Below are positions 8,919-20,462 of a stretch of 64,000 bases of DNA, piece after piece (position 1 is the first letter of the stretch; every line of letters starts with the position of its first letter). The translations under genes and the position numbers were made by a program. The notes under the pieces were generated by a model. It was given only the letters and a program-made list of their open reading frames with translations, made no database searches and had not been told where the DNA came from. The stretch is taken from NCBI RefSeq assembly GCF_053078305.1, contig NZ_CP166879.1; one strand, written 5' to 3'.

Positions 8919-9773
8919 ATGCAACAAAAAATGATTCAATTTAGTGGCGATGTCTCACTGCCAGCCATAGGGCAGGGAACATGGTATATGGGCGAAGATG
9001 CCAGTAAGTGTAAAACAGAAGTTGCTGCACTACGCGCGGGCATTGAGCTCGGTTTAACCCTCATTGATACCGCCGAAATGTATGCCGATGGTGGTGCCGA
9101 AAAGGTGGTTGGGGAAGCATTAACCGGTCTGCGTGATAACGTCTTTCTCGTCTCTAAAGTCTATCCGTGGAATGCTGGCGGGCAAAAAGCGATAAATGCA
9201 TGCGAAGCCAGTTTACGCCGTCTCAATACTGATTATCTCGATCTCTACTTATTACACTGGTCTGGCAGTTTCGCTTTTGAAGAGACTGTCGCAGCGATGG
9301 AAAAATTGATCGCCCAAGGAAAAATCCGCCGCTGGGGCGTTTCGAACCTTGATTATGCTGATATGCAGGAACTCTGGCAGCTGACGGGGGGAAATCAGTG
9401 TGCCACTAATCAGGTGCTTTACCATCTCGGTTCACGAGGGATTGAGTACGATCTACTCCCCTGGTGCCAGCAACAGCAGATGCCGGTGATGGCTTACAGT
9501 CCGTTAGCCCAGGCCGGGCGGTTGCGCAATGGACTGTTAAAAAACGCGGTAGTCAACGAAATTGCACATGCTCACAATATCAGCGCGGCACAAGTATTGT
9601 TGGCGTGGGTAATCAGCCATCAGGGTGTGATGGCGATTCCAAAAGCGGCCACGATTGCCCATGTCCAACAGAATGCGGCTGTGCTTGAGGTCGAACTTTC
9701 GTCAGCGGAATTAGCCATGCTGGACAAAGCATATCCGGCACCAAAAGGAAAAACTGCGCTGGATATGGTGTGA
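8919..9773 (+). CDS. yeaE: Aldo-keto reductase YeaE (284 aa)
   Basis: 284-aa ORF of the aldo-keto reductase family, recognised as YeaE. Confidence 0.9.
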   Translation: MQQKMIQFSGDVSLPAIGQGTWYMGEDASKCKTEVAALRAGIELGLTLIDTAEMYADGGAEKVVGEALTGLRDNVFLVSKVYPWNAGGQKAINACEASLRRLNTDYLDLYLLHWSGSFAFEETVAAMEKLIAQGKIRRWGVSNLDYADMQELWQLTGGNQCATNQVLYHLGSRGIEYDLLPWCQQQQMPVMAYSPLAQAGRLRNGLLKNAVVNEIAHAHNISAAQVLLAWVISHQGVMAIPKAATIAHVQQNAAVLEVELSSAELAMLDKAYPAPKGKTALDMV

Positions 9774-12856: not shown

Positions 12857-13225
12857 GTGGTTCATCCCCTTTTTGCCGCGGCTATGAAGGGGATAGCCAA
12901 CAATGACCCCACGACTCATCTCAATTATCTCGCCATGACCTGGCTAAGTCCCAGTCCGATCTCTTGCCGTCGCGTTCACGCCTGAATGACTTCTCCTGAA
13001 CTTAAGTCTCAGACCTATTTGGCCGGTAATCCCTCTCAAATTTGCTCCTTTTGCGTTCCGCCTTCCATCAACCTGTAACAGAACCAGCCATTTTTTGCGT
13101 AATTGTGATCTGAGTTGTAAAACGCAGATCATTATCTGTGTTTTACAGATTTAATGTTGACCTCAAAAATCATGTGGGTAAGTATGATGACCATCTAAGC
13201 AAAACAAAACACAGAGGATGACGCA

Positions 13226-14302
13226 ATGAAAGCACTGGCTCGGTTTGGCAAGGCCTTTGGCAGCTACAAGATGATTGATGTCCCACAACCCATGTGTGGC
13301 CCGGAAGATGTAGTGATTGAAATTAAAGCCGCGGCAATCTGCGGCGCAGACATGAAGCACTACAATGTCGATAGCGGTTCTGATGAGTTTAACTCTATCC
13401 GCGGCCATGAGTTCGCAGGTTGTATTGCGCAGGTTGGTGAAAAAGTCAAAGACTGGAAAGTGGGGCAACGCGTCGTGTCGGATAACAGCGGTCACGTTTG
13501 CGGCGTTTGTCCGGCCTGTGAACAGGGTGATTTTCTGTGTTGTACAGAAAAAGTAAACCTTGGTCTGGATAACAATACCTGGGGCGGTGGTTTTTCCAAA
13601 TATTGTCTGGTTCCTGGTGAAATTCTCAAAATTCATCGTCATGCCTTGTGGGAAATCCCTGATGGTGTTGATTATGAGGACGCAGCCGTACTTGACCCTA
13701 TCTGTAATGCCTACAAATCCATCGCGCAGCAATCGAAATTCCTTCCTGGTCAGGATGTGGTCGTCATCGGCACTGGCCCACTCGGGTTGTTCTCCGTACA
13801 AATGGCGCGGATTATGGGGGCGGTAAATATCGTCGTCGTTGGTCTGCAAGAAGATGTGGCGGTCCGCTTCCCGGTTGCAAAAGAACTGGGTGCGACGGCA
13901 GTAGTAAATGGTTCTACCGAAAATGTGGTGGCGCGCTGCCAGCAAATATGTGGCAAAGACAATCTGGGACTGGTGATTGAATGCTCCGGTGCCAATATCG
14001 CATTGAAACAAGCCATCGAAATGCTCCGCCCGAACGGGGAAGTGGTACGCGTTGGAATGGGCTTCAAACCTCTTGATTTCTCGATTAATGACATTACCGC
14101 CTGGAACAAAAGCATCATTGGGCATATGGCCTATGACTCAACCTCATGGCGTAACGCTATCAGGCTATTAGCCAGCGGCGCTATCAAAGTCAAACCGATG
14201 ATCACGCATCGTATCGGCCTGTCGCAATGGCGCGAAGGGTTTGATGCGATGGTCGATAAAACCGCAATCAAAGTGATCATGACTTACGACTTTGATGAAT
14301 AA
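13226..14302 (+). CDS. ydjL: Zn-dependent medium-chain alcohol/polyol dehydrogenase YdjL (358 aa)
   Basis: 358-aa ORF with a GHEFAG zinc-binding motif and a GTGPLG Rossmann motif. Confidence 0.9.
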   Translation: MKALARFGKAFGSYKMIDVPQPMCGPEDVVIEIKAAAICGADMKHYNVDSGSDEFNSIRGHEFAGCIAQVGEKVKDWKVGQRVVSDNSGHVCGVCPACEQGDFLCCTEKVNLGLDNNTWGGGFSKYCLVPGEILKIHRHALWEIPDGVDYEDAAVLDPICNAYKSIAQQSKFLPGQDVVVIGTGPLGLFSVQMARIMGAVNIVVVGLQEDVAVRFPVAKELGATAVVNGSTENVVARCQQICGKDNLGLVIECSGANIALKQAIEMLRPNGEVVRVGMGFKPLDFSINDITAWNKSIIGHMAYDSTSWRNAIRLLASGAIKVKPMITHRIGLSQWREGFDAMVDKTAIKVIMTYDFDE

Positions 14303-14328
14303 CAACTTTCCTGAAGGAACGTTATCGC

Positions 14329-15708
14329 ATGGAACAGATAACAAAACCGCATTGTGGTGCACGGCTGGATCGCTTACCGGATTGCCGCTGGCATTCATCA
14401 ATGTTTGCCATCGTCGCGTTTGGCTTGCTTGTCTGCTGGAGTAATGCCGTTGGTGGCTTGATCCTCGCGCAGCTGAAAGCGTTGGGCTGGACAGATAATT
14501 CCACCACAGCCACATTCTCAGCAATCACGACCGCCGGAATGTTTCTCGGTGCGCTGGTGGGCGGCATCATTGGCGACAAAACCGGTCGCAGAAATGCGTT
14601 CATCCTCTATGAGGCCATTCATATTGCCTCGATGGTTGTCGGTGCTTTCTCACCGAATATGGATTTCCTTATTGCCTGCCGTTTTGTGATGGGAGTTGGG
14701 CTGGGAGCTTTACTGGTTACGCTGTTTGCTGGTTTCACCGAATATATGCCCGGTAGAAATCGTGGAACGTGGTCAAGTCGGGTTTCCTTTATTGGCAACT
14801 GGTCATATCCGCTCTGTTCATTGATAGCGATGGGACTCACGCCGCTGATTAGTGCAGAGTGGAACTGGCGGGTACAACTGCTTATCCCTGCAATATTGTC
14901 GCTTATCGCTACGGCGCTGGCCTGGCGCTACTTTCCTGAATCCCCGCGCTGGCTGGAATCGCGCGGACGGTATCAGGAAGCCGAGAAAGTCATGCGGAGT
15001 ATAGAAGAAGGCGTCATACGCCAGACAGGTAAACCTTTGCCGCCCGTGGTTATTGCTGATGACGGTAAAGCACCACAAGCGGTGCCATATTCAGCCTTAC
15101 TGACAGGAGTATTACTGAAACGCGTGATATTAGGCTCTTGTGTGCTGATTGCCATGAACGTTGTGCAGTACACACTAATTAACTGGTTGCCAACGATATT
15201 CATGACCCAGGGGATTAATTTAAAAGACTCGATTGTTTTAAATACCATGAGTATGTTTGGCGCGCCATTTGGCATTTTTATTGCCATGCTGGTGATGGAT
15301 AAAATTCCGCGTAAAACAATGGGTGTGGGGCTATTAATCCTGATTGCGGTGCTCGGATATATCTATTCACTGCAAACCAGCATGTTGCTCATAACGTTGA
15401 TTGGTTTCTTCCTGATTACTTTCGTCTATATGTACGTTTGCTATGCCTCGGCAGTGTATGTCCCTGAGATCTGGCCGACAGAGGCCAAACTCCGTGGCTC
15501 CGGTCTGGCGAATGCGGTAGGGCGAGTCAGTGGTATTGCCGCACCTTATGCCGTTGCAGTGCTGCTCAGTAGTTATGGCGTTACGGGAGTCTTTATTCTT
15601 CTGGGGGCGGTTTCAATTATTGTCGCAATTGCTATCGCCACCATTGGAATCGAAACCAAAGGTGTCTCCGTTGAAAGTTTAAGTATTGATGCAGTAGCCA
15701 ATAAATAA
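14329..15708 (+). CDS. ydjK: MFS-family sugar transporter YdjK (459 aa)
   Basis: 459-aa polytopic membrane protein, recognised as YdjK. Confidence 0.9.
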   Translation: MEQITKPHCGARLDRLPDCRWHSSMFAIVAFGLLVCWSNAVGGLILAQLKALGWTDNSTTATFSAITTAGMFLGALVGGIIGDKTGRRNAFILYEAIHIASMVVGAFSPNMDFLIACRFVMGVGLGALLVTLFAGFTEYMPGRNRGTWSSRVSFIGNWSYPLCSLIAMGLTPLISAEWNWRVQLLIPAILSLIATALAWRYFPESPRWLESRGRYQEAEKVMRSIEEGVIRQTGKPLPPVVIADDGKAPQAVPYSALLTGVLLKRVILGSCVLIAMNVVQYTLINWLPTIFMTQGINLKDSIVLNTMSMFGAPFGIFIAMLVMDKIPRKTMGVGLLILIAVLGYIYSLQTSMLLITLIGFFLITFVYMYVCYASAVYVPEIWPTEAKLRGSGLANAVGRVSGIAAPYAVAVLLSSYGVTGVFILLGAVSIIVAIAIATIGIETKGVSVESLSIDAVANK

Positions 15709-15724
15709 TACGGGTGGATTCAAA

Positions 15725-16768
15725 ATGAAAAATTCAAAAGCAATATTGCAGGTGCCGGGCACAATGAAAATTATTTCAGCAGAAATACCAGTGCCTAAAG
15801 AAGATGAAGTTTTGATTAAAGTAGAATATGTCGGTATTTGTGGTTCAGATGTACATGGTTTTGAATCAGGTCCGTTTATTCCGCCTAAAGACCCAAATCA
15901 AGAAATTGGCCTGGGTCATGAATGCGCCGGGACGGTTGTGGCTGTGGGAAGCCGCGTGCGCAAATTTAAACCGGGGGATCGGGTAAATATCGAACCTGGC
16001 GTTCCTTGCGGTCACTGTCGTTACTGTCTGGAAGGCAAATATAACATCTGCCCGGACGTTGATTTTATGGCGACACAACCCAACTACCGCGGCGCATTAA
16101 CGCACTATCTGTGTCATCCGGAGAGCTTTACTTACAAACTGCCCGACAATATGGACACGATGGAAGGGGCGCTGGTGGAGCCTGCCGCAGTCGGGATGCA
16201 TGCCGCGATGCTGGCAGATGTTAAACCGGGTAAGAAGATAATTATTCTGGGAGCGGGTTGTATTGGTTTGATGACGTTGCAAGCGTGCAAATGCCTGGGA
16301 GCAACGGAAATTGCCGTCGTTGATGTGCTGGAAAAACGTCTGACAATGGCGGAACAGCTTGGTGCGACAGTGGTTATTAACGGCGCAAAAGAAGACACTA
16401 TTGCACGCTGTCAGCAATTTACCGAAGACATGGGCGCAGATATTGTTTTCGAAACAGCGGGTTCTGCGGTCACCGTTAAACAGGCACCTTATCTGGTAAT
16501 GCGCGGCGGTAAAATTATGATTGTTGGTACTGTACCCGGCGATTCGGCAATCAATTTCCTCAAAATCAATCGCGAAGTCACTATCCAGACGGTATTCCGC
16601 TATGCCAATCGTTATCCGGTCACGATTGAAGCTATTTCTTCAGGGCGATTCGATGTGAAATCGATGGTGACACATATTTACGATTACCGTGATGTACAAC
16701 AGGCATTTGAAGAGTCGGTTAACAACAAACGCGACATTATTAAAGGCGTTATTAAAATTAGCGATTAA
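15725..16768 (+). CDS. ydjJ: Zn-dependent alcohol dehydrogenase YdjJ (347 aa)
   Basis: 347-aa ORF with GHECAG and GAGCIG motifs. Confidence 0.9.
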   Translation: MKNSKAILQVPGTMKIISAEIPVPKEDEVLIKVEYVGICGSDVHGFESGPFIPPKDPNQEIGLGHECAGTVVAVGSRVRKFKPGDRVNIEPGVPCGHCRYCLEGKYNICPDVDFMATQPNYRGALTHYLCHPESFTYKLPDNMDTMEGALVEPAAVGMHAAMLADVKPGKKIIILGAGCIGLMTLQACKCLGATEIAVVDVLEKRLTMAEQLGATVVINGAKEDTIARCQQFTEDMGADIVFETAGSAVTVKQAPYLVMRGGKIMIVGTVPGDSAINFLKINREVTIQTVFRYANRYPVTIEAISSGRFDVKSMVTHIYDYRDVQQAFEESVNNKRDIIKGVIKISD

Positions 16769-16788
16769 TTAATACGGGAGAACAGAAC

Positions 16789-17625
16789 ATGCTCGCAGAT
16801 ATCAGATATTGGGAAAACGATGCCACAAATAAACATTATGCAATTGCCCATTTTAACGTATGGAATGCAGAAATGTTGATGGGCGTTATCGACGCAGCCG
16901 AAGAAGCGAAATCCCCGGTTATTATTTCTTTTGGTACAGGTTTTGTCGGCAACACCTCATTTGAAGATTTCTCTCACATGATGGTATCAATGGCACGAAA
17001 AGCAACTGTGCCGGTAATAACTCATTGGGATCATGGTCGGAGTATGGAGATTATTCATAACGCCTGGACTCATGGTATGAATTCATTAATGCGTGATGCT
17101 TCCGCATTTGATTTCGAAGAAAATATTCGTTTAACCAAAGAGGCTGTTGATTTCTTCCATCCGCTGGGTATTCCGGTAGAGGCGGAATTAGGGCATGTCG
17201 GTAATGAAACCGTTTATGAGGAAGCTCTGGCGGGCTATCACTATACCGATCCTGACCAGGCGGCTGAATTTGTTGAACGTACGGGCTGTGACTCATTGGC
17301 TGTCGCCATCGGCAACCAGCATGGGGTTTATACGTCAGAGCCACAATTGAACTTTGAGGTCGTCAAACGCGTACGCGATGCCGTGTCTGTTCCGCTGGTT
17401 TTGCATGGCGCATCGGGGATCAGTGATGCCGACATTAAAACTGCAATTTCGTTAGGTATCGCGAAAATCAACATCCATACGGAGCTCTGTCAGGCCGCAA
17501 TGGTCGCAGTGAAAGAAAACCAGGATCAGCCTTTCCTGCATTTAGAACGTGAAGTACGTAAAGCTGTAAAAGAACGGGCATTGGAAAAAATTAAACTGTT
17601 CGGTTCTGATGGCAAAGCGGAATAA
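16789..17625 (+). CDS. ydjI: Class II ketose-bisphosphate aldolase family protein YdjI (278 aa)
   Basis: 278-aa ORF, recognised as YdjI. Confidence 0.9.
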   Translation: MLADIRYWENDATNKHYAIAHFNVWNAEMLMGVIDAAEEAKSPVIISFGTGFVGNTSFEDFSHMMVSMARKATVPVITHWDHGRSMEIIHNAWTHGMNSLMRDASAFDFEENIRLTKEAVDFFHPLGIPVEAELGHVGNETVYEEALAGYHYTDPDQAAEFVERTGCDSLAVAIGNQHGVYTSEPQLNFEVVKRVRDAVSVPLVLHGASGISDADIKTAISLGIAKINIHTELCQAAMVAVKENQDQPFLHLEREVRKAVKERALEKIKLFGSDGKAE

Positions 17626-17629
17626 TGAT

Positions 17630-18577
17630 ATGGATAATCTCGACGTTATTTGTATAGGTGCCGCTATTGTTGATATTCCATTGCAACCGGTCAGTAAAAA
17701 TATCTTTGATGTGGATTCTTATCCTCTTGAAAGAATCGCAATGACCACCGGGGGTGATGCAATAAATGAAGCAACAATTATTTCTCGTCTGGGCCATCGT
17801 ACAGCATTAATGAGTCGTGTTGGTAAAGATGCCGCAGGACAATTTATTCTCGACCATTGCCGCAAAGAGAATATTGATATTCAAAGCCTGAAACAGGACG
17901 TCAGCATAGATACCTCTATTAACGTTGGACTGGTGACGGAGGATGGCGAGCGGACGTTTGTCACAAACCGTAACGGCAGTCTGTGGAAATTGAATATTGA
18001 CGATGTTGATTTTTCGCGGTTTTCTCAGGCGAAATTATTATCACTGGCCAGTATTTTCAACAGTCCTCTATTGGATGGTAGAGCGCTAACAGAAATTTTT
18101 ACGCAAGCTAAAGCCCGGCAGATGATTATCTGTGCCGATATGATCAAACCGCGGTTGAATGAAACGCTGGATGATATTTGCGAAGCATTGAGTTATGTCG
18201 ATTATCTGTTTCCTAATTTTGCCGAGGCAAAATTACTCACCGGGAAAGAGAGACTGGATGAAATTGCTGACTGCTTTCTTGCGTGCGGCGTAAAAACGGT
18301 GGTGATTAAAACGGGTAAAGACGGCTGCTTTATCAAGCGTGGTGACATGACGATAAAGGTGCCAGCGGTCGCAGGAATAACCGCCATCGACACCATTGGC
18401 GCGGGCGATAACTTTGCTTCAGGTTTTATTGCGGCACTGTTAGAAGGCAAAAATCTGCGTGAATGCGCACGCTTTGCCAATGCAACGGCGGCTATCTCAG
18501 TTCTAAGCGTCGGTGCCACCACCGGTGTAAAAAACAGAAAGCTGGTCGAACAATTGCTGGAAGAATACGAAGGATAA
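17630..18577 (+). CDS. ydjH: PfkB-family sugar kinase YdjH (315 aa)
   Basis: Start at the ATG at 17630 (MDNLDVICIGAA...), 4 nt after the ydjI stop; GAGD motif near the C-terminus. Confidence 0.9.
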   Translation: MDNLDVICIGAAIVDIPLQPVSKNIFDVDSYPLERIAMTTGGDAINEATIISRLGHRTALMSRVGKDAAGQFILDHCRKENIDIQSLKQDVSIDTSINVGLVTEDGERTFVTNRNGSLWKLNIDDVDFSRFSQAKLLSLASIFNSPLLDGRALTEIFTQAKARQMIICADMIKPRLNETLDDICEALSYVDYLFPNFAEAKLLTGKERLDEIADCFLACGVKTVVIKTGKDGCFIKRGDMTIKVPAVAGITAIDTIGAGDNFASGFIAALLEGKNLRECARFANATAAISVLSVGATTGVKNRKLVEQLLEEYEG

Positions 18578-18586
18578 TGAAGGCAA

Positions 18587-19567
18587 ATGAAAAAGATACC
18601 TTTAGGCACAACGGATATAACGCTTTCGCGAATGGGTTTGGGGACATGGGCCATTGGCGGCGGTCCTGCATGGAATGGCGATCTCGATCGGCAAATATGT
18701 ATTGATACGATTCTTGAAGCCCATCGTTGCGGCATTAATCTGATTGATACTGCACCAGGATATAACTTTGGCAATAGTGAAGTTATCGTCGGTCAGGCGT
18801 TAAAAAAACTGCCCCGTGAACAGGTTGTAGTAGAAACCAAATGCGGCATTGTCTGGGAACGAAAAGGAAGTTTATTCAACAAAGTTGGCGATCGGCAGTT
18901 GTATAAAAACCTTTCCCCGGAATCTATCCGCGAAGAGGTAGAAGCCAGCTTGCAACGTCTGGGTATTGATTACATCGATATCTACATGACGCACTGGCAG
19001 TCGGTGCCGCCATTTTATACGCCGATCGCTGAAACTGTCGCAGTGCTTAATGAGTTAAAGGCTGAAGGGAAAATTCGCGCTATAGGCGCTGCTAACGTCG
19101 ATGCTGACCATATCCGCGAGTATCTGCAATATGGTGAACTGGATATTATTCAGGCGAAATACAGTATCCTCGACCGGGCAATGGAAAACGAACTGCTGCC
19201 GCTATGTCGTGATAATGGCATTGTGGTTCAGGTTTATTCCCCGCTAGAGCAGGGATTGTTGACCGGCACCATCACTCGTGATTACGTTCCGGGCGGCGCT
19301 CGGGCAAATAAAGTCTGGTTCCAGCGTGAAAACATGCTGAAAGTGATTGATATGCTTGAACAGTGGCAGCCACTTTGTGCTCGTTATCAGTGCACAATTC
19401 CCACTCTGGCACTGGCGTGGATATTAAAACAGAGTGATTTAATCTCCATTCTTAGTGGGGCTACTGCACCGGAACAGGTACGCGAAAATGTCGCGGCACT
19501 GAATATCAACTTATCGGATGCAGACGCAACATTGATGAGGGAAATGGCAGAGGCCCTGGAGCGTTAA
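18587..19567 (+). CDS. ydjG: Aldo-keto reductase YdjG (326 aa)
   Basis: 326-aa ORF of the aldo-keto reductase family, recognised as YdjG. Confidence 0.9.
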   Translation: MKKIPLGTTDITLSRMGLGTWAIGGGPAWNGDLDRQICIDTILEAHRCGINLIDTAPGYNFGNSEVIVGQALKKLPREQVVVETKCGIVWERKGSLFNKVGDRQLYKNLSPESIREEVEASLQRLGIDYIDIYMTHWQSVPPFYTPIAETVAVLNELKAEGKIRAIGAANVDADHIREYLQYGELDIIQAKYSILDRAMENELLPLCRDNGIVVQVYSPLEQGLLTGTITRDYVPGGARANKVWFQRENMLKVIDMLEQWQPLCARYQCTIPTLALAWILKQSDLISILSGATAPEQVRENVAALNINLSDADATLMREMAEALER

Positions 19568-19703
19568 ATACTCAACACGATTCACCTCTGTTTCTGTGAA
19601 AACTGTGATGAAAATCTGTGATTCAAACAGGTTATTTTGAAAGTAAACATCGGTTATGCGATAATCGCGCTAATGTGATGTAAAAAGATACAGGGGTGTA
19701 ATC

Positions 19704-20462
19704 GTGGCGGCAAAAGACAGGATTCAGGCAATTAAGCAAATGGTTGCCAACGATAAAAAGGTGACAGTCTCAAATTTGAGTGGGATTTTTCAGGTAACCG
19801 AAGAAACCATTCGCCGCGATCTTGAGAAGCTGGAAGATGAAGGCTTTTTGACCAGAACCTATGGTGGTGCTGTTTTAAATACAGCGATGTTGACGGAGAA
19901 TATCCATTTTTATAAGCGCGCTTCATCGTTTTATGAAGAGAAGCAGCTTATTGCACGCAAGGCACTACCCTTTATCGACAATAAAACCACCATGGCAGCC
20001 GATTCCAGTAGTACCGTAATGGAATTGCTCAAATTGTTACAGGACCGTAGTGACCTGACGTTGCTAACCAACTCGGCGGAAGCGATTCATGTTCTGGCTC
20101 AGTCAGAAATTAAAGTCGTTTCAACGGGTGGGGAACTAAACAAAAATACACTTTCACTGCAAGGAAGAATTACTAAAGAGATCATCAGCCGCTATCATGT
20201 CGATATCATGGTAATGAGTTGTAAAGGTCTTGATATTAACAGCGGCGCGCTGGACTCTAATGAAGCGGAAGCTGAAATCAAAAAGACAATGATCCGTCAG
20301 GCGACAGAAGTTGCGTTATTGGTTGATCACTCTAAGTTTGATCGCAAAGCTTTTGTCCAGTTAGCTGACTTTAGTCATATTAATTACATAATAACTGATA
20401 AATCACCGGGTGCAGAGTGGATAGCATTTTGCAAAGACAATAATATCCAGCTGGTGTGGTAA
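19704..20462 (+). CDS. ydjF: DeoR-family transcriptional regulator YdjF (252 aa)
   Basis: GTG-initiated 252-aa ORF; an N-terminal helix-turn-helix region followed by a sugar-binding domain. Confidence 0.9.
   Translation: MAAKDRIQAIKQMVANDKKVTVSNLSGIFQVTEETIRRDLEKLEDEGFLTRTYGGAVLNTAMLTENIHFYKRASSFYEEKQLIARKALPFIDNKTTMAADSSSTVMELLKLLQDRSDLTLLTNSAEAIHVLAQSEIKVVSTGGELNKNTLSLQGRITKEIISRYHVDIMVMSCKGLDINSGALDSNEAEAEIKKTMIRQATEVALLVDHSKFDRKAFVQLADFSHINYIITDKSPGAEWIAFCKDNNIQLVW

Follow-up and report, generated by a model that had tools for sequence, protein, structure and literature searches.

The CTGTGA copies upstream of Escherichia coli ydjF as a probable composite of overlapping regulatory signals: a putative YdjF site, a CRP site, and an RNA helix

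Introduction

Among the closest described counterparts of the locus considered here are sugar operons under the control of regulators of the DeoR family. Some members of this family use direct repeats. The glp regulon has tandem and intragenic operators, and the half-site recognized by GlpR is of the TGTTCG type. The control of deoCABD by DeoR involves distant operators with DNA looping. DeoR-family repressors are commonly paired with CRP activation, and phosphorylated effectors and semi-palindromic sites are typical of them (PMC12632272).

The ydjLKJIHG genes of E. coli constitute an orphan sugar-acid pathway. The ydjL promoter was silent in culture and was switched on in the mouse gut (PMC6561318). 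The regulator gene ydjF follows ydjG. YdjF was still classed as uncharacterized in 2016, and none of the papers found that mention ydjF reports a binding site for it. A candidate YdjF operator sequence would provide a handle for finding the inducer of the pathway and would define a gut-responsive promoter for use in biosensors.

The window analyzed here is a stretch of 64,000 nucleotides of the E. coli chromosome (contig NZ_CP166879.1). In its ydjG-ydjF spacer, an initial annotation had noted three copies of CTGTGA and had proposed them as an autoregulatory or catabolite-control element. In this study, the three copies were compared with orthologous spacers, with a box motif derived from distant ydj clusters, with published CRP data, and with the predicted RNA structure of the spacer.

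Results

The genes ydjL-K-J-I-H-G, ydjF, and ydjE are all located on the plus strand of the window. The spacer between ydjG, which ends at 19567 with its TAA stop codon (19565-19567), and the GTG start codon of ydjF at 19704 is 136 bp long. The ydj locus was carried by 4329 of the 5426 complete genomes of E. coli and was plasmid-borne in one case. In strain 0H18, ydjG is a pseudogene with an internal stop.

A re-scan of the window confirmed the three copies of CTGTGA in the same orientation on the plus strand, at 19594-19599 (repeat 1), 19603-19608 (repeat 2), and 19616-19621 (repeat 3), with spacings of 9 and 13 nt. Repeats 1 and 3, which are 22 bp apart, are the only copies that extend to the 7-mer TCTGTGA, and a fourth TGTGA is present in the spacer at 19674-19678. 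The hexamer showed no overall enrichment in the window (18 matches versus 24.6 expected), and a same-strand CTGTGA triple within 30 bp was found in none of 2000 dinucleotide shuffles. When any hexamer was allowed, the real window contained 4 non-overlapping triples within 30 bp, compared with a mean of 1.17 in the shuffles, and 69% of the shuffles contained at least one. The repeat pattern is weak once the look-elsewhere effect is allowed for and is by itself not compelling. Since the pattern alone proves little, its meaning was sought in comparative and published data.

The three copies differ in their conservation in the alignment of ydjG-ydjF spacers from 16 gammaproteobacterial species. 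The TGTG columns of repeat 3 were invariant in all 16 orthologues, and the context of this repeat, AAATCTGTGATTCA(A/G)ACA (block 2), was nearly invariant, while the neighboring spacer varied. Repeat 1 lies in another block (block 1), and all non-E. coli orthologues that keep this block, namely, those of E. whittamii, Citrobacter, Klebsiella, and Budvicia, have CTGTGT instead; in more distant gammaproteobacteria the repeat is lost. Repeat 2 is a novelty of the E. coli lineage and falls in the variable part of the alignment, where other genera have unrelated sequence. The corresponding sequence is CTATGA in E. whittamii and CCGTGA in a single E. coli strain (MEW). The picture of three repeats is thereby corrected, in that one copy alone of the three is ancient.

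A sigma-70 promoter for ydjF was predicted on the plus strand at 19637-19665, with the -35 hexamer TTGAAA at 19637-19642, a TG extension at 19657-19658, and the -10 hexamer GATAAT at 19660-19665. The promoter has 10 of 12 matches and a spacing of 17 bp, and the predicted transcription start is near 19672. The -35, TG, and -10 columns were invariant in the alignment of the 16 gammaproteobacterial spacers. The same arrangement, TTGAAA-17-GATAAT, is given for ydjF among the RpoD "constitutive promoters" of Shimada et al. 2014 (PMC3946193), and the published data include capture of the spacer by RNA polymerase. The terminator scan predicted no terminator after ydjG, and on this basis ydjG and ydjF may be co-transcribed. 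Between the predicted start of the ydjF transcript and the Shine-Dalgarno (SD) sequence, window positions 19676-19695 (TGATGTAAAAAGATACAGGG) are the reverse complement of a degenerate LexA box proposed for the ChIP-chip target "ydjF, ydjK" (PMC3542263). This sequence is kept, with one substitution, in E. whittamii only.

The product of ydjF (19704-20462, plus strand) is a regulator of the DeoR/GlpR family with HTH_DeoR and DeoRC domains (Pfam matches PF08220 at 2.9e-17 and PF00455 at 2.4e-49), and the RefSeq annotation is concordant. A search with an alignment of YdjF orthologues yielded 80 loci, to which seven further gammaproteobacterial loci were added. Synteny of the ydjLKJIHG-ydjF cluster was seen in Citrobacter, Klebsiella, Budvicia, E. 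whittamii, and other gammaproteobacteria. It extends to many Lachnospiraceae, further Firmicutes, Veillonella, a member of the Pasteurellaceae, and a member of the Atopobiaceae. YdjF is the transcription factor encoded inside this conserved ydjL-ydjF gene block, and all these taxa have identical residues in its helix-turn-helix and wing. When window positions 13226-20462 of E. coli were compared with the loci of gut Firmicutes (L012-L081), the amino acid identity was 75-84% for YdjL and up to 86% for YdjI, and just about 53% for YdjF. The unusual similarity of the cluster enzymes points to a probable transfer of the cluster between phyla, in which the operator motif would have been retained.

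The box motif was learned with a Gibbs sampler from 21 non-proteobacterial ydjL upstream regions (Firmicutes and Actinobacteria), and the resulting matrix contains no proteobacterial sequence. The sampler arrived at TTTTCTGTGTTTCAAAGATTT, which has the palindromic form TCTGTG-N3-CAnAGA, and the complete motif is a 21-bp palindrome, AAATCTGTG-N3-CACAGATTT. A perfect TTCTGTGAAACACAGAA is present at the Atopobiaceae locus and a perfect AAATCTGTGTTTCACAGATTT in Serratia and Enterobacillus. The high-scoring boxes are inverted repeats in more than 35 genomes. Motif, regulator, and operon occur together: of 39 syntenic loci, which represent at least four phyla, nearly all have a box ahead of ydjL. 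We infer that this box serves the DeoR-family protein YdjF as its operator.

When the matrix was run over the 64-kb window, the top score was 26.5 bits at the ydjL promoter, the second 19.35 bits inside ydjL, and the third 10.9 bits. The maximum score in 300 shuffles averaged 14.1 bits; a score of 26.5 was reached once and a score of 19.35 thirteen times. The matrix scan found no YdjF boxes in the ydjF-ydjE spacer.

The top match, here called O1, is a strong putative YdjF box (TTATCTGTGTTTTACAGATTT, 13132-13152) whose downstream end lies 4 bp ahead of TTGACC (13157-13162), the -35 hexamer of ydjL. The box of the ydjL promoter is conserved at about -94 in most of the gammaproteobacteria. Box and -35 hexamer are separated by 4 bp in E. 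coli, at the ydjL as well as the ydjF promoter, and by 3-5 bp in most other loci in which a -35-like hexamer was found.

The second match, the intragenic putative box O2 (TTTTCTGTGTTGTACAGAAAA, 13531-13551), is located inside ydjL at +305, 399 bp from O1, in codons for FLCCTEK. An intragenic box was present at +305 in all gammaproteobacterial orthologues examined. In a comparison of 11 gammaproteobacteria whose ydjL DNA is 76-82% identical, O2 was the most conserved 21-nt window of the gene (rank 1 of 1030; 0.962 versus 0.777). The identity at its third codon positions was 0.912, compared with a gene mean of 0.469 (rank 1 of 344). Firmicutes have a near-identical peptide, DFLCCExK, encoded by other codons and with the box absent, apart from one partial exception (locus L027, 13.9 bits). 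Judged from these codon comparisons, O2 is not a by-product of the protein sequence. The conservation at synonymous positions and the use of other codons without a box in Firmicutes indicate that the box functions as a DNA motif and belongs with the ydj cluster. This suggests that O2 may serve as an intragenic operator and may loop with O1.

Further upstream, at window positions 13104-13131, TTTGTGATCT is kept ahead of ydjL in most gammaproteobacterial loci examined and is followed by a weak box, GTTGTAAAACGCAGAT. A conserved full CRP site at TTTGTGATCT was considered and rejected, as the scores were at most 5.9 bits in enterics and other gammaproteobacteria. The sequence could represent a degenerate half-site for CRP in combination with YdjF. 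In the Pasteurellaceae locus (L036), a perfect TGTGATCAAAATCACA lies about as far from ydjL. At 13115-13148, the weak box and the strong box downstream of it make up a 13/14 inverted repeat (TGTAAAACGCAGAT / ATCTGTGTTTTACA), which was flagged as terminator-like by the terminator scan. Paired operators are more likely than a terminator because the repeat is positioned upstream of the ydjL -35 hexamer.

Strong boxes (25-35 bits) were also found downstream of ydjF in Lachnospiraceae, at 8940-9060 of locus L047 and at equivalent positions in L014, L017, L020, L022, L023, L026, L028, L029, and L031. In L047, these boxes precede a gene for a sodium:dicarboxylate symporter (SDF), which is followed by an enolase-family gene. 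The downstream boxes suggest that the YdjF regulon may be larger in Lachnospiraceae, which would fit a carboxylate-bearing substrate. Upstream of ydjF in the same family, "TTTCAAAGGA direct repeats" were considered as half-sites. The region is ambiguous, being either an in-frame N-terminal extension with an SD sequence and an ATG (ORF L047 7902-8759) or a promoter, and hence was not used as evidence. The pattern TGTGnTTYnAA was present in just 4 of 23 spacers.

At the promoter of ydjF itself, one degenerate palindrome was found in E. coli, the putative YdjF operator AAATCTGTGATTCAAACAGGT at 19612-19632. It ends 4 bp before the -35 hexamer, and repeat 3 is its left arm. This box scored 6.46 bits, ranked 20th over all positions on both strands, and matched 11 of 14 consensus positions; about 0.03 such matches are expected per spacer. 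The aligned orthologous sites scored 14.6 bits in Phytobacter, 20.1 bits in Brenneria, 15.9 bits in Agarivorans, and about 9.2 bits in most Citrobacter, and the sites of E. whittamii and K. oxytoca were weak, at just 3.6-4.6 bits. The motif is thus strong at the orthologous position in three to four lineages and weak in Escherichia and K. oxytoca. When the three copies were scored as YdjF half-sites (consensus GTTTCTGTGA), repeat 3 reached 11.9 bits as the left-arm core of the box, the half-site-like repeat 1 reached 8.9 bits at its distance of 22 bp upstream of repeat 3, and repeat 2 reached 6.4 bits. An arrangement of three tandem 21-bp YdjF boxes (I, II, and III) across the spacer was rejected, since boxes I and III had scores of -8 to -25 bits in E. 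coli.

The E. coli region over the -35 hexamer also scored negative as a full box, and a true box at this place was found in Serratia only. In Firmicutes, a second box overlaps the -35 hexamer and the spacer, and this position favors repression. Positions from -60 to -40 are typical of activator sites no less than of repressor sites, and YdjF could also act as an activator from -50.

ydjF is among the CRP targets found by genomic SELEX (Shimada et al. 2011), and Table S3 of that study lists the peak "ydjF< <ydjG ACAGATTTTCATCACA 1.85297e6" (PMC3105977). The listed sequence ACAGATTTTCATCACA is the reverse complement of window positions 19604-19619, and the coordinate mapping to the published CRP box was confirmed via the LexA-like site. 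The box, TGTGATGAAAATCTGT, consists of the TGTGA of repeat 2 and the TCTGT of repeat 3. Compared with TGTGA-N6-TCACA, its left half is perfect and its right half (TCTGT) matches at 2 of 5 positions. A palindromic CRP matrix was built from 148 other boxes of Table S3 (PMC3105977). With this matrix the box scored 8.2 bits, which placed it 27th among about 64,000 positions. The score lies above the 10th percentile (5.1 bits) and below the median (11.1 bits) of the published training boxes. The CRP part of the spacer is already published, as an in vitro SELEX result.

The capture of the spacer by SELEX, the score within the range of published boxes, and the center of the box at 19611.5, about -60.5 to -61.5 relative to the predicted start of transcription and near the classical class I position, would agree with CRP-cAMP as the sole acting protein. 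The TGTGA copies would then be CRP half-sites, and the likeness to the ydjL box would be incidental. This explanation is unlikely, however. The 16-mer at 19604 alone exceeded 3 bits, and the remaining TGTGA copies scored at most 2.5 bits, so that a scheme in which every TGTGA is the left half of a full CRP site was rejected. The conserved repeats 1 and 3 form no CRP sites. The scoring site needs repeat 2, which is absent outside E. coli; the site scored 5.2 bits in E. whittamii, and other genera had no site at that position. In addition, the flanks of the conserved repeat 3 (AAATCTGTGATTCA) match a motif learned in Firmicutes, which are CRP-less. The earlier reading of TGTGA as a CRP half-site is supported for repeat 2, which is part of the published box, and not for repeats 1 and 3. 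CRP may be dispensable for ydjF because the ydjF promoter is near-consensus and listed as constitutive.

The spacer RNA had a folding z score of -3.9, driven by pairing between 19578-19596 and 19685-19703. The 5' (anti-SD) arm, CGATTCACCTCTGTTTCTG, lies shortly after the ydjG stop codon on the plus strand and has repeat 1 at its 3' edge, the first nucleotides of the repeat being inside the arm. The 3' arm, AAGATACAGGGGTGTAATC, on the same strand, covers the SD region of ydjF up to the GTG start. The duplex energy was -20.4 kcal/mol, compared with -9.6 ± 2.1 kcal/mol in shuffles, none of which (0 of 300) reached this value. The helix was also predicted by RNAalifold on the 16-species alignment.

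A duplex at the same position was found in 15 of the 16 species, in which the best partner of the SD region lies at -135 to -101 from the start, with energies of -14 to -24 kcal/mol. The helix was better than all 300 shuffles in 13 species and had a P value of ≤0.01 in 15. Paired cells amounted to 89.4%, compared with 54-66% when the partners were slid, and four pairs changed on both sides. Compensatory differences include GATT/AATC versus GATG/CATC, as well as AAACCTCC/GGAGGTTT. The complementarity is thus beyond chance, is conserved in position, and is accompanied by covariation. Among known RNA families, Rfam gave no match to the spacer at E ≤ 1. Block 2 takes part in a small conserved hairpin, TTCAAA/TTTGAA.

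The ydjF promoter is located between the two arms of the helix, and the anti-SD arm would be carried by the read-through operon mRNA only. Block 1, with repeat 1, is explained by the anti-SD helix at least as well as by a YdjF half-site. Any half-site role of repeat 1 would be inseparable from the RNA constraint on the same nucleotides.

Discussion

The 28-bp stretch with the three CTGTGA copies is probably a composite of overlapping signals, namely, a YdjF site, a CRP site, and an RNA helix, and not a single triple-repeat operator; we assign a probability of roughly 0.55 to this reading. Of the autoregulatory or catabolite-control element first proposed, the ideas of a YdjF operator and of CRP are each supported, for different repeats, but the copies do not qualify as equal units of a single direct-repeat operator. 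As control of a sugar operon, a DeoR-type operator together with CRP is of an ordinary kind. None of the literature found on this locus describes the putative YdjF box, the codon-embedded O2, or the anti-SD helix with its proposed read-through-specific mask of the ribosome-binding site.

The sequence patterns, their conservation, and the statistics are results of this study, and YdjF as the box-binding protein, the direction of regulation, the looping, and the masking of the ribosome-binding site are what we infer. In the composite reading, YdjF would occupy the weak 19612-19632 site at its own -35 hexamer, with the same geometry as O1 at ydjL. The box abuts the -35 hexamer of a strong and conserved promoter in the geometry seen at ydjL, from which weak autoregulation by YdjF, most likely negative, would follow. 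Relief would be brought about by a phosphorylated pathway intermediate, as in other members of the DeoR family. The main control would be exerted at ydjL through O1 and the intragenic O2, probably with looping over 399 bp.

Repeat 2, and with it a weak CRP site (19604-19619) centered near -61, would have arisen in E. coli and its lineage by point substitutions within the variable part of the spacer. Because this site overlaps the YdjF site, CRP and YdjF would compete or interact. In the read-through ydjLKJIHG mRNA, the anti-SD arm would pair with the ribosome-binding site of ydjF and mask it. The transcript from the ydjF promoter would start between the arms and would lack the anti-SD arm. The composite reading offers a testable model in which the synthesis of the regulator would be kept apart from the induction of the operon.

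A more elaborate arrangement of the same parts, a two-layer insulator for ydjF, is improbable. The CRP site, arisen de novo between the YdjF half-sites, would in that case set up a CytR-like anti-activation competition, the anti-SD helix would silence ydjF translation on the read-through mRNA of the induced operon, and a lac-like loop between O1 and O2 (399 bp) would be written into synonymous positions. If this were true, induction of ydjLKJIHG would not raise repressor levels, and the design would be unusually complete for the regulation of an orphan, gut-induced pathway.

It is decidedly improbable that no protein acts on the repeats, such that they arose by chance, block 1 being kept for the RNA helix and block 2 for a promoter-proximal (UP-like) function or for RNA structure. 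The helix does account for block 1, the TTCAAA/TTTGAA hairpin falls in block 2, triples of some hexamer are common by chance, and the E. coli box is weak. However, in 16 diverged species hardly any change is seen in repeat 3 and its flanks next to a variable stretch of spacer, a matrix derived independently gives the orthologous sites scores as high as 14-20 bits, and the capture by CRP in SELEX is published.

The model of the initial annotation, in which YdjF as a DeoR-type protein binds three equivalent CTGTGA direct repeats as one tandem autoregulatory operator, has in its favor the CTGTG half-site core in all three copies and the direct repeats used by some members of the family but is very unlikely, given that the spacing is irregular (9 and 13 nt), that repeat 2 is confined to E. 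coli and repeat 1 differs elsewhere in its last base, that the inferred box is an inverted repeat, as in the more than 35 genomes, and that the full-box score of the stretch with repeats 1 and 2 is negative.

The composite reading can be compared with four known systems. The ydj system resembles GlpR and the glp regulon in having a DeoR-family regulator with HTH_DeoR and DeoRC domains, and CRP co-control, with a phosphorylated effector, would be a further point of likeness, both being described for the family (PMC12632272). Palindromic operators of about 20 bp beside or over promoters, with extra operators inside a structural gene, are also shared, the ydj boxes being putative. The ydj box differs in its sequence, TCTGTG-N3-CACAGA, and the promoter of ydjF has just one putative box, which is degenerate.

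DeoR and deoCABD provide a second parallel, with a regulator of the same family, palindromic operators, more than one of them, separated by hundreds of base pairs (399 bp between the putative ydj operators), and the involvement of CRP. In contrast to deoCABD, the second ydj operator would be located inside the first structural gene, and the looping in ydj is suggested by conservation at synonymous sites alone.

The CRP site resembles those of class I promoters (lac-type, -61.5) in its TGTGA half-site, its 16-mer core, its center near -61 from the predicted start, and its published capture in vitro. It differs from them in that the right half of the ydjF site is poor (TCTGT), the promoter is near-consensus and listed as constitutive, and the site is found in E. 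coli only. Finally, the helix resembles systems of anti-SD masking and translational coupling, as the segment after the ydjG stop codon is complementary to the SD and start region of ydjF and compensatory changes occur between species. The difference is the internal promoter between the ydj arms, which would confine the masking to read-through transcripts.
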